Source of the DNA: a bacterium
GTDB lineage: Bacteria > Hydrothermota > 32-111
Direction of reading: 5' to 3'
Length of the DNA stretch: 47,659 nucleotides
Assembly: GCA_050239825.1 (NCBI GenBank)
Contig: JBFXGO010000013.1
Location: 1-47,659 of the forward strand
Positions 30,720 through 47,659 of the stretch are shown piece after piece. Each line of letters begins with the position of its first letter. Positions within the stretch are counted from its first letter, which is position 1. Made by a program: the position numbers and the translations under genes. The notes beneath the pieces were generated by a model, which was not told the origin of the DNA, ran no database searches, and worked only from the letters and a program-made list of their open reading frames with translations.

Positions 30720-30725
30720 CCGTAT

Positions 30726-31990
30726 AGCCCCCCAAATCAGCCTTGAGCCTTGTGCCGTGAGCCTTGAGCTTAATACGGGGAATTGATTAATATTTTGTCT
30801 TTTCAATTCCGAGTGAGAAGCCTGTCCACAGCGCTCGTCTGTCCAATGCTTCTCATGAGGATGGGGACATTCCTACGGTGTGTCCCCATAACAAATATTG
30901 AAAGTGAAAGCTCAAAGTCGGCGAGGACGCTCCGCGAAGACGCCCATCAAGTGGTTCTCTCCTTGCTACGCTTTCCCATCTTGATTAAGCGGCGAAGCGG
31001 AGTGTGTGAGCCGACGCTACGCCCGCGTGCAGCCCATCATCAATCTTCTATTAACAATAACAACAAACTGATAGACCCTTCACTCTAGTCATAACCACAG
31101 AGGCGTTCAGGGTGACTCTGCTGAGTAAATAACTTGCCTTTACAGTCCGAGGAAAAATTCCAGTGCATCATAACTCAATATACTGCTGATTAATATTTTG
31201 TCTTTACAGTAATCTTCACAAAGTTCTGGTGCAACCCGATACCTCTATCATGTGCGTTCGCGCACATTCCACCCCAGCCAATGCTTTGTGAAGATTCAAT
31301 CAATTAATTAACTTATTGATAATCGTAAGCTCAAAGTCGGCGAGGACGCTCCGCGAAGACGCCCATCAAGTGGTTCTCTCCTTGCTCCGCTAACCCATCT
31401 TGATTAAGTGGCGAAGCGGAGTGTGTGAGCCGACGCTATGCCCGCGTGTAGCCCATCATCAATCTTCTATTAACAATAACAACAAACTGATAGACCCTTC
31501 ACTCTAGTCATAACCACAGAGGCGTTCAGGGTGACTCTGCTGAGTAAATGACTTGCCTTTACAGTCCGAGGAAAAATTCCAGTGCATCATAACTCAATAT
31601 ACTGCTGATTAATATTTTGTCTTTACAGTAATCTTCACAAAGTTCTGGTGCAACCCGATACCTCTACCATGTGCGTTCGCGCACATTCCACCCCAGCCAA
31701 TGCTTTGTGAAGATTCAATCAATTAATTAACTTATTGATAATCGTAAGCTCAAAGTCGGCGAGGACGCTCCGCGTAGCCGCCCATCAAGTGGTTCTCTCC
31801 TTGCTACGCTTTCCCATCTTGATTAAGCGGCGAAGCGGAGTGTGTGAGCCGACGCTATGCCCACGTGCAGCCCCAAGCATTTCTTGACTCGAGACCAGTA
31901 ATGTTGGACTAGGGATATCTTTATCCCATCTTGATTAAGCGGCGAAGCGGAGTGTGTGAGCCGACGCTACGCCCGCGTGCAGCCCCCCAT
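30726..31990. repeat. Mosaic palindromic repeat array A: 419-bp tandem unit x ~2.3 plus extra modules
   Basis: GTCGGC...GCCGAC hairpins at 30917-31015, 31336-31434, 31755-31853 (419-bp period) plus a 3' half at 31924-31965; 8 differences between units 1 and 2. Confidence 0.95.
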
Positions 31991-31995
31991 ACCAT

Positions 31996-37759: not shown

Positions 37760-37806
37760 CCAAATGCAGAAAAGGTTTGGAACACATTGACAATTTCAAT
37801 AGTAGA

Positions 37807-38475
37807 GTTGAGTAATATTTTGTCTTTACATTAATCTTCTCAAAGTTCTGGCGCAACCCGTTTTTTCTATTATGTGCGTTCTCGCACATTTCTCCCTCGC
37901 CAATGGTTTTAGAAGATTTGGGGACATTCCTTCGGTGTGTCCCCATAACAAATATTGAAACACGAAAGCTACAAGTCGGCGAGGACGCTCCGCGAAGACG
38001 CCCGTCGAGGTTTGCCGAGACAAAGCGGCGAAGCGGAGTGTGTGAGCCGACGCTACACCCGCCAGCAGCCCCAGCTCAATCTTCAATTATCAACAAACAA
38101 TAACCAATCAAATGATATACCCTTCACGATAGTCATAACCACAGAGGCGTTCAGGGTGACACGGTTGAGTAAGATTTTGTCTTTACAGTTCCGAGGAAAA
38201 ATTCCAGTGCATCTCCGCACTGCTATTCGATGTTTTTCCGAGGACAAGCAATTCAATTTTTATTGAAAGTGAAAGCTACAAGTCGGCGAGGACGCTCCGC
38301 GAAGACGCCCGTCGAGGTTTGCCGAGACAAAGCGGCGAAGCGGAGTGTGTGAGCCGACGCTACACCCGCCAGCAGCCCCAGCTCAATCTTCAATTATCAA
38401 CAAACAATCTGCGATTAACAATAAAAATGATAGATTCTTCACATGAGAAGAACGAATAGAGAACTTCAGAATGTC
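37807..38475. repeat. Mosaic palindromic repeat array B
   Basis: Same modules as array A; 138-bp identical direct repeat at 37964-38101 and 38271-38408 (307-bp period). Confidence 0.95.
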
Positions 38476-38497
38476 GGAACTTTTTGGGGGATAATGA

Positions 38498-46723: not shown

Positions 46724-46730
46724 ACAATCA

Positions 46731-47608
46731 GTTTCGAGTTACGAGTTACGGGTTACGAGTTTAAATACAATACAGAGTGCTGATTAATATTTATTCTTTT
46801 CATTAATCTTCTAAAACTTCTGGTACAACCCGTTCTTTTCTATCATGTGCGTTCGCGCACATTACACCCGCGCCAATGGTTTTAGAAGATTCAGGCAATT
46901 AAATAACTTATTGATACACGAAAGCTCAAAGTCGGCGAGGACGCTCCGCGAAGACGCCCATCGAGTGGTCGCCCCCTTGCTCCGCTATCCCATCTTGATA
47001 AAGCGGCGAAGCGGAGTGTGTGAGCCGACGCTACGCTATTCATCAGCCCACCAAATCAGCCCTGAGCCTTGTGCCGTGAGCCTTGAGCTTAATACGGAGA
47101 GCCGAGTAAATAACTTGTCTTTACAGTTCCGAGGAAAAATTCCAGTGCAGTCATAACTCAATATACTGCTGATTAATATTTATTCTTTTCAATAATCTTC
47201 TAAAACTTCTGGTGCAACCCGAGGCGTCTATCATGTGCGCTCGCGCACATTTCACCCTCGGCAATGGTTTTAGAAGATTCAATCAATTAAATAACTTATT
47301 GAAACACGAAAGCTACAAGTCGGCGAGGACGCTCCGCGAAGACGCCCATCAAGTGGGCGACCCCTTGCTCCGCTAACCCATCTTGATAAAGCGGCGAAGC
47401 GGAGTGTGCGAGCCGACGCTACACCCGCCATCAGCCCATAAACAATCTTCAATCATCAACAATCAATAAACAATAATCAATAAACTGATAGACCCTTCAC
47501 GATAGTCATAACTACTGAATAGTTCAGGGTGACTCGATTGAGTCATAACCATAGAGGCATTCAGGGTGACACTGCTGAGTAAGATTTTGTCTTTACAGTA
47601 ATCTTCAC
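46731..47608. repeat. Mosaic palindromic repeat array C
   Basis: Same modules; GC hairpins at 46931-47029 and 47319-47417 (388-bp period); long stem-loops at 46805-46891 and 47194-47279. Confidence 0.95.
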
Positions 47609-47659
47609 TAGCCGCCAGTTAAAAAGCTACAATTTGGCTTTAATTTTTCCCATCCTGAA
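47608..47659 (-). CDS. Possible 3' end of a convergent gene
   Basis: Open frame ...SGWEKLKPNCSFLTGG-TAG ends where array similarity stops; too short to verify. Confidence 0.35.
   Translation of the reverse strand, partial: SGWEKLKPNCSFLTGG

Follow-up and report, generated by a model that had tools for sequence, protein, structure and literature searches.

The closest described systems are summarised first. BIMEs with TnpA-REP are intergenic tandem mosaics of hairpins and linkers that make up about 1-2% of a genome (PMC3333891, PMC3733652). Their copy number varies by site, the genome encodes a Y1 enzyme, and amplification driven by TnpA-REP, in which ssDNA is proposed to be cut and joined, is a published model (PMC3333891). 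NIMEs and the NTS/SRM-Ssn system combine mosaics carrying SRM-like hairpins with a small GIY-YIG gene flanked by such hairpins (PMC1797815, PMC11893778). The nuclease SsnA tolerates loop changes, needs the hairpin base, cuts upstream of its hairpin, and is encoded in an SRM-ssnA-SRM layout (PMC11893778). TIRtrons carry class 2.1 TnpA-Y1 (TIRYT) genes, and the motif GGGGWSAS has been reported in the TIRs of TIRYT genes (PMC3733652); the accessible parts of PMC3733652 and PMC6006769 describe no hairpin substrate for the class 2.1 enzymes. Finally, attC is a structure-encoded site with a conserved base, a variable terminal structure and a folding strand that lies on the leading-strand template (PMC5371416).

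The window, by which we mean the whole 47,659-nucleotide stretch analysed, contains three arrays in which a long nested hairpin, called G, recurs. The G arrays share with BIMEs the intergenic mosaic of hairpins and linkers, the genome share, the variation of copy number by site, a Y1 enzyme in the genome and a proposed ssDNA cut-and-join amplification. They share with NIMEs the SRM-like hairpins, and a 95-aa GIY-YIG gene flanked by T-type repeats matches the SRM-ssnA-SRM layout. As to TIRtrons, TIRs and a GGGGACA mini-hairpin are modules of the arrays and occupy the tip of G. G resembles attC in its structure-encoded design and conserved base, in length (57-141 nt range), in its variable terminal structure and in a folding strand on the leading-strand template, the replichore being an inferred one.

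G also departs from each of these systems. It is a multi-stem hairpin of 77-141 nt and not an inverted REP dimer, and the module inventory of the arrays contains neither REP dimers (BIME) nor dRS3 units (NIME) as building blocks. Unlike in GTAG-type REPs, no GTAG lies 5' of the hairpin on the folding strand (GTAG-C precedes the - strand stem in 69/104 copies), and no cognate RAYT/Y1 gene is flanked by G. The SRM-like piece of the arrays is module T, and the GIY-YIG gene is flanked by T-type repeats, not by G; neither strand carries the HGTCWY tag at the foot of G, and the tag is present in T and in the GIY-YIG flanks. Breakpoints in G fall inside the right arm, whereas SsnA cuts upstream. TIR identity was found for the TIR module and not for G. 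The attC R boxes RYYYAAC/GTTRRRY are absent, the basal stems being of the GTCGGC, GCCGGC, GCTCAT and GCGAAT types; there are no extrahelical bases, P2 consisting of nine uninterrupted pairs, and neither an integron integrase nor gene cassettes between the sites were found. G works like the core of a BIME or NIME and resembles attC in design, and it lacks the defining features of attC, GTAG-REP and SRM.

The host genome (G000; 2.1 Mb, 67 contigs) was searched for G and its neighbours. Forty-five oriented intergenic arrays were identified, comprising 42,078 bases or 2.0% of the genome. They are high-copy tandem mosaics with a fixed grammar, as in BIMEs and NIMEs, and G is their most common building block. 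The cyclic unit has the order G-(S or T)-J-(F1, F2 or F3)-L. The left arm was followed by the right arm in 104/104 G copies, and the next module was S (44) or T (41). Module junctions sit at shared stretches of 7-9 nt. Read depth over the arrays in one public run was far above the single-copy depth of 27x, which shows that the multiple copies were not created by the assembly. The arrays and modules of the window are as follows.

30720..31995, + strand: array A, S-J-F3-R-G-T-J-F1/J-F2-L-G-T-J-F1/J-F2-L-G-D-half G, located between convergent genes; the related genome G001 has an empty site here
37760..38497, + strand: array B, flanked by the stop codons of a trmA-like gene and pdxA; the related genome G002 has an empty site here
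46724..47659, + strand: array C, reaching the contig end
31070..31116, - strand: T module, an SRM-like hairpin; other copies near 31489, 38114 and 47487, and a degenerate copy at 38429-38475
30808..30861, + strand: F3 hairpin (TCC-GA ... GA-GGA), which alternates with two others in the F slot
31211-31296: F2
38190-38245: F1
30862..30888, no strand assigned: R mini-hairpin with GGGGACA arms; second window copy at 37919-37945

F3 and F1 have TCC-GA ... GA-GGA in common and fully different inner stems, and the F3 arm sequence recurs, in reversed order, in a sister form of G; the tandem-GA motif therefore recurs in three slots. Host genes next to arrays were not AT-richer than genes at other gaps (78 vs 554 genes, p=0.77), and a reading of the arrays as devices of cassette capture was dropped on this result. 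Several arrays or end-pieces adjoin MazF/RHH, ParE/Phd, RhuM, BRO-N, ORF6N, Fic, DUF6036 and AAA_14 genes. A duplicated, contig-truncated ORF (G000:C44:3-374 and C47:3-374, 97% identical) lies 165 nt upstream of two arrays and had no NCBIfam match. Two more tandem repeat families are unrelated to G (G000:C7 right end; C27:42850-43200; C7:59480-59900), one of which repeats a tRNA-like sequence end together with the R hairpin.

The first-pass annotation of the window had listed seven full copies of G and one half copy, and all were recovered at the same positions.

30917..31015, + strand: G hairpin, 99-nt form, with P1 of 6 bp, tandem G.A, P2 of 9 bp, a GNA/GNA loop, P3, P4 and the tip
30923..30929, + strand: left half of the invariant core (GA-GG-A-C-G) in the first copy; GA in 51/51 and A in 51/51 distinct basal haplotypes, both partly demanded by the search pattern
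31003..31009, + strand: right half of the invariant core (TGT-GYGA) in the first copy; T 50/51, G 51/51, T 51/51; orphan right arms start here
31336..31434, + strand: G hairpin, 99-nt form, with G.T in P3
31755..31853, + strand: G hairpin, 99-nt form, with a GTA loop and the P3 mismatch repaired to C-G
31921..31965, + strand: right-arm half copy of G, fused to the heptamer module D (31886-31917) at a short common stretch; same junction in other arrays
37975..38051, + strand: G hairpin, 77-nt form
38282..38358, + strand: G hairpin, 77-nt form
46931..47029, + strand: G hairpin, 99-nt form, with G.T in P4
47319..47417, + strand: G hairpin, 99-nt form

The full copies in the host genome number 104, of which 91 measure 99 nt, 8 measure 114 nt and 5 measure 77 nt. 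Four copies of the sister form, 124-141 nt long, occupy the same slot with wholly different stem letters. The sister form has some likeness to a hammerhead ribozyme (CUCAUGA...CGAAU against the hammerhead consensus); this candidate was rejected, as the core G is changed and there is no Rfam match.

Folding of the copies, a check proposed in the first-pass annotation, gave a more stable + strand in 81/104 copies with DNA parameters, and the consensus energy was -39.0 for the + strand vs -23.0 for the - strand. Folding z-scores of the + strand for three copies were -1.5 to -2.9 (DNA) and -2.9 to -4.3 (RNA). The + strand is the folding strand of G. From the foot upwards it forms P1 (6 bp), tandem G.A/A.G pairs, a G.T or G-C pair, a G.G mismatch, P2 (9 bp), a loop of about 3x3 (GNA/GNA in the main family), P3 (5 bp), a CC/WWA loop, P4 and the tip. 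RNAalifold added three pairs between the conserved flanks.

This fold redraws parts of the earlier one. The stretches gagg and gtga, formerly taken as a plain internal loop, form the tandem G.A pairs, the G.T or G-C pair and the G.G mismatch, so that the change of gtga to gcga turns G.T into G-C (35/91 copies). The third stem had been drawn as CGCC/GGCG, which pairs about as well as GACGC/GCGGC over a mixed alignment (83.0% vs 80.8%). The latter, flanked by the 3x3 GNA/GNA loop and the CC/WWA loop, is the better drawing because ViennaRNA and RNAalifold choose it and the variants of relatives keep all five pairs only there. The array B copies are indeed 77 nt long with a short GA-GG-loop-CC-GA tip; their apex is not replaced as a whole, since the fourth stem is kept and covaries (ATC/GAT vs GTC/GAC). 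The G.T change in the copy at 46931 lies in P4 and was seen again. The outer stems, described as identical in all full copies, are so in 7/7 window copies (GTCGGC/GCCGAC and ACGCTCCGC/GCGGAGTGT); genome-wide, 19/58 paired columns of the 99-nt copies vary, mostly by rare transitions.

The claim that substitutions fall mainly in loops held across the genome. Among the 91 99-nt copies, substitutions per site and copy were 0.014 in paired positions, 0.060 in internal loops, 0.135 in the tip and 0 at the four tandem-GA positions, which means that within this genome paired columns vary ten times less than the tip. Common polymorphisms affected 3/58 paired vs 12/41 unpaired columns of these copies (Fisher p=0.0014). 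Covariation was examined in 25 sequences from G000, its relatives and two stray contigs; 14/24 pairs had changed on both sides and 94.7% of cells were paired, with kinship ignored and four sister-form rows supplying many of the changes. None of 500 shuffles did as well, and slid controls reached 20-40%. The base of G may be read, as suggested earlier from the letters, as a recognised structure; two-sided, multi-base compensatory stem changes can also be made by template switching (PMC8794818).

Fifty-one distinct basal haplotypes were found in several subfamilies of the genus. Their stem cells comprised 640 Watson-Crick, 80 G.T, 15 A.C and 30 other combinations. The near-invariant letters were G1, the tandem GA on both arms, A11-T89, G88 and T87, where the left GA and A were demanded by the search pattern. 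T87 stays T opposite G in 46/51 haplotypes and is never C, and TGT is thus conserved beyond what pairing needs. The fixed part of G is narrower than the whole base and corresponds to a GA/GA plus TGT core.

Both GNA triloops and tandem G.A pairs lend stability to hairpins of DNA. C(GNA)G loops with an extra pair numbered 121 on the + strand and 270 on the - strand vs about 38 in shuffled sequence, a three- to sevenfold excess, whereas C(UNCG)G loops numbered 0 and 2 vs 8-11, the copies not being independent in either count. The loops of G are of the DNA type, with GNA triloops abundant and UNCG absent.

The apex had been called a tolerated variable region, and at least five tip types were found (77, 99, 114, 124/125 and 141 nt). 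The 77-nt form ends in a short GA-flanked hairpin and the 99-nt form in a pyrimidine-rich loop, while the tip of the 114-nt form and the 141-nt sister form is the 27-nt mini-hairpin R with its GGGGACA arms. A further type is a longer nested hairpin. R also occurs by itself in arrays, and in G002 it takes the place of the left portion of the sister hairpin. The arms of R match GGGGWSAS fully or almost so. The occurrence of R in the tip and elsewhere and its TIR-like arms indicate that the tip acts as a landing slot and is more than a tolerant loop. The G tip often carries a second mobile mini-hairpin.

Arrays A and B are missing at the orthologous sites of G001 and G002, respectively; the exact junctions at these empty sites are blurred by sequence divergence. 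When four public DNA runs were mapped on two stretches, no empty site was seen. The copies themselves are thoroughly shuffled. Eighty-five of the 91 99-nt copies are distinct, carrying a few multi-base alleles in nearly all combinations. All four gametes were present in 85/91 site pairs, and r2 was close to 0 for sites more than about 5 nt apart (about 0.02 above 10 nt). Neighbours within one array are almost as divergent as copies from different arrays (5.2 vs 6.5 differences). Because linkage is near zero everywhere, no crossover hot spot is visible at the core.

Breakpoints were traced from orphan right arms, which fell into 30 clusters; one was dropped as a spurious antisense match, leaving 29 lineages. 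Of these, 20/29 have their start 8-17 nt short of the G end, inside or immediately before TGT-GYGA (p=6e-9 vs a uniform null), a cluster that lies close to the detection limit, as arms shorter than 8 nt escape detection, and that depends on coarse clustering. Sixteen of the 18 arms with extents of 10-17 have T before GYGA. A looser, earlier count placed 8/43 array starts of the host genome in these same positions. Longer orphan arms are joined to TIR, D or R modules at short common stretches, in junctions that recur, and other arrays start in the next small hairpin or before J. Given these other starts, the nearby detection limit and the coarse clustering, erosion or polymerase stalling could make part of the cluster. 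No array ended with a left arm plus tip, an ending that a simple circle-insertion model would predict. The C^T cleavage rule of TnpA-REP was rejected since, by reasoning from the orphan-arm starts, it does not fit the modal breakpoint.

The arrays are oriented with respect to replication. With replichores inferred from codon-position skew in the 67-contig draft, the folding strand coincides with the C-rich strand, the predicted nascent lagging strand and leading-strand template, in 38/45 arrays and 28/32 contigs. The same orientation was found in 13/17 transcription-neutral (divergent or convergent) gaps (p=0.049). The folding strand is antisense to co-directional neighbour genes in 16/18 cases. 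The relatives lean the same way (31/47 short loci), and stand-alone SRMs and TIRs had no orientation bias (20:15 and 9:7).

A covariance model of G, R1, gave 113 matches in G000, 19 in G001 and 11 in G002, which represent three species, two of the genomes being fragmented. It found no G in 11 other genomes of the family, nor in the 148 others among 151 genomes of the phylum when 23 candidates were scored per genome. G is confined to one genus of candidate division WOR-3, a group of uncultured bacteria. A wider genome collection gave 43 loci, of which only those in two records of the host genus and on two contigs filed under other phyla have real paired stems; the others failed the stem check. 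In metagenomes 7 real G loci were identified among 80 of at least 119 loci, all 7 beside genes of close relatives. One strict G pattern had 0 matches in viral contigs. Rfam 15 gave no gathering-level match in the window and no worthwhile weak match in four array loci. In a literature search aimed only in part at this question, with subscription papers mostly outside its reach and supplements excluded, no description of the element was found.

One of the two contigs, 3.4 kb long and filed under Gammaproteobacteria, carries a G copy and is probably mis-binned, because three genes beside the copy share 79-85% identity with G000 proteins. The other (G151:C28; 30 kb, from a genome titled as a Bacillota genus) has arrays nearly identical to those of G000, interleaved with AbiE pairs, AAA_14/DUF4143 and NTP_transf_8 genes and a duplicated block. 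It also holds a polysaccharide-like gene cluster, judged from N-termini. Its junctions are marked by TIR-SRM-TIR clusters and its genes match G000 only distantly. This contig is either a mis-binned strain island or the result of transfer.

No enzyme gene flanked by G was found, as R1 had 0 matches in 52 loci around Y1, GIY-YIG, integrase, IS110, DUF559 and reverse transcriptase genes. IS110 is absent from G000, and Y2 transposases (IS91 type) had 0 matches in the 3 genomes and likewise 0 in 14 controls. A stand-alone, AT-rich reverse transcriptase of 498 aa (G000:C17:34300), likely of the defence type, has no G nearby, and G001 and G002 have none. The T module belongs to the same family as the inverted repeats flanking the 95-aa GIY-YIG gene of G000 (G000:C27:46085-46369), which is syntenic in G002 and whose product we take, from its size, flanks and motif, to be a member of cd10448. 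Four Y1 proteins of 259-301 aa in G000 (contigs C14, C5, C56 and C18) have NHYH and Y---NP motifs and short TIRs, and were assigned to class 2.1 (TIRYT) by the motifs given in PMC6006769. The TIRs of the Y1 genes are array modules and often abut the right arm of G. A TIR forms the 3' end of 7 arrays, which end at the TIR tip, and an eighth ends in a degenerate TIR; in G001 an array end adjoins, across a gap, a whole TIR-flanked Y1 gene. The TIR-flanked Y1 genes of G000 have counterparts at the corresponding sites of G001 or G002, and two directly follow tRNA-like sequences, which suggests that Y1 genes have been resident for a long time. The best candidate enzymes are the four TIRYT proteins, favoured because TIRs abut G right arms and end arrays and because of the G001 array beside the Y1 gene, and then the Ssn-like GIY-YIG nuclease.

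The best reading of these results is that G sits in BIME/NIME-like mosaics as a structure-selected element. On balance it is probably a selfish ssDNA element whose fold and core are read by a putative cutting enzyme. This proposal takes as established the + strand fold, the core, the free tip, the module order, insertion, allele shuffling, orientation and the breakpoint cluster. Only copies with an intact fold and core would be cut and copied. The cut would fall within the core, and the strand 3' of it would be joined to new DNA, which would explain why arrays start with an orphan right arm. Freed + strand pieces would then anneal to the exposed lagging-strand template at other copies. Such annealing would account for the orientation bias, the junctions at short shared stretches and the base-by-base shuffling, and for tip exchange, with new tips arising as looped-out inserts. 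Single-strand annealing is known to favour the lagging strand. Evidence against the proposal includes the 0 matches of R1 around candidate enzyme genes, the limits of the orphan-arm cluster, the missing left-arm-plus-tip endings, linkage that gives no sign of a hot spot at the core, and replichores drawn from skew in a draft genome. IS608-type enzymes act on the lagging-strand template (PMC3333891), which is the other strand than the folding strand of G. In addition, the presence of G (3/14 family genomes) is narrower than that of Y1 genes (13/14) and Ssn-like genes (6/14). A bolder version, which we regard as unlikely, makes G a structure-encoded site of single-strand recombination that belongs to a new class, analogous to attC without an integron and nicked in the tandem-G.A core at TGT/GYGA by a class-2.1 Y1 enzyme; recombination of the freed strands at the lagging strand would shuffle modules base by base, with other elements carried along in the tip.

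It is doubtful, though well worth weighing, that G is a passive product of replication with no dedicated enzyme. A polymerase would stall at the foot of the 9-bp stem and switch template there, correction of quasi-palindromes would produce the two-sided stem changes, and arrays would survive mainly where the stronger hairpin is off the lagging-strand template, an orientation that stabilises large attC arrays as well (PMC5371416). Multi-base compensatory changes can arise by template switching (PMC8794818). In line with this reading, subfamilies differ by whole stems, in blocks nested on the two arms, module junctions lie at 7-9-nt shared stretches and the breakpoints fall at the base of P2. 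Correction, however, would remove mismatches, and the G.A/A.G, G.G and G.T combinations persist in 46-51 of the 51 haplotypes; jumps to distant empty sites and linkage equilibrium across 45 loci are left unexplained. Some features also fit an RNA. The + strand folds well as RNA, its G.U-type wobbles favour one strand, and tandem G.A pairs and 3x3 purine loops are RNA motifs too. That G is a structured RNA or RNA-level stabiliser made from the + strand, with arrays as tandem RNA genes, is nevertheless improbable in view of the Rfam results, the absence of a promoter or terminator excess in array A, the DNA-type GNA triloops in place of UNCG, the folding strand antisense to co-directional neighbours in 16/18 cases, and a copy number and position that vary between species.

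Orientation bias as strong as this, over about 2% of the genome, might also be expected of a host-selected, replichore-oriented chromosome site, such as a landing pad for a nucleoid or segregation protein. We consider this highly improbable for an element that is found in one genus only (3/151 phylum genomes), in 113, 19 and 11 copies in the three species (two genomes being fragmented) at sites they do not have in common, and with a conserved fold that needs single strands. The conserved base, variable terminal structure, length of 77-141 nt and folding strand on the leading template match attC (PMC5371416), so the arrays could be read as cassette clusters that have lost their integrase. This reading is hardly credible, as there is no AAC/GTT box and P2 has no extrahelical bases, the spacers are a few recurring modules and not diverse cassettes, and the only recombinases, XerC, XerD and a 133-aa fragment, are far from the arrays and none scores above the integron cut-off.

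The reach of the finding is limited to one genus of uncultured bacteria. Within it the 51 basal haplotypes form a natural substitution series, which reveals the fixed bases of a mobile ssDNA hairpin and where the hairpin breaks. G offers a ready, specific substrate for testing class-2.1 Y1 (TIRYT) proteins and Ssn nucleases. Should no enzyme take part, G would still be a clean case of structure maintained in junk DNA. It bears on how arrays of the BIME/NIME type spread and on why they are oriented to replication.
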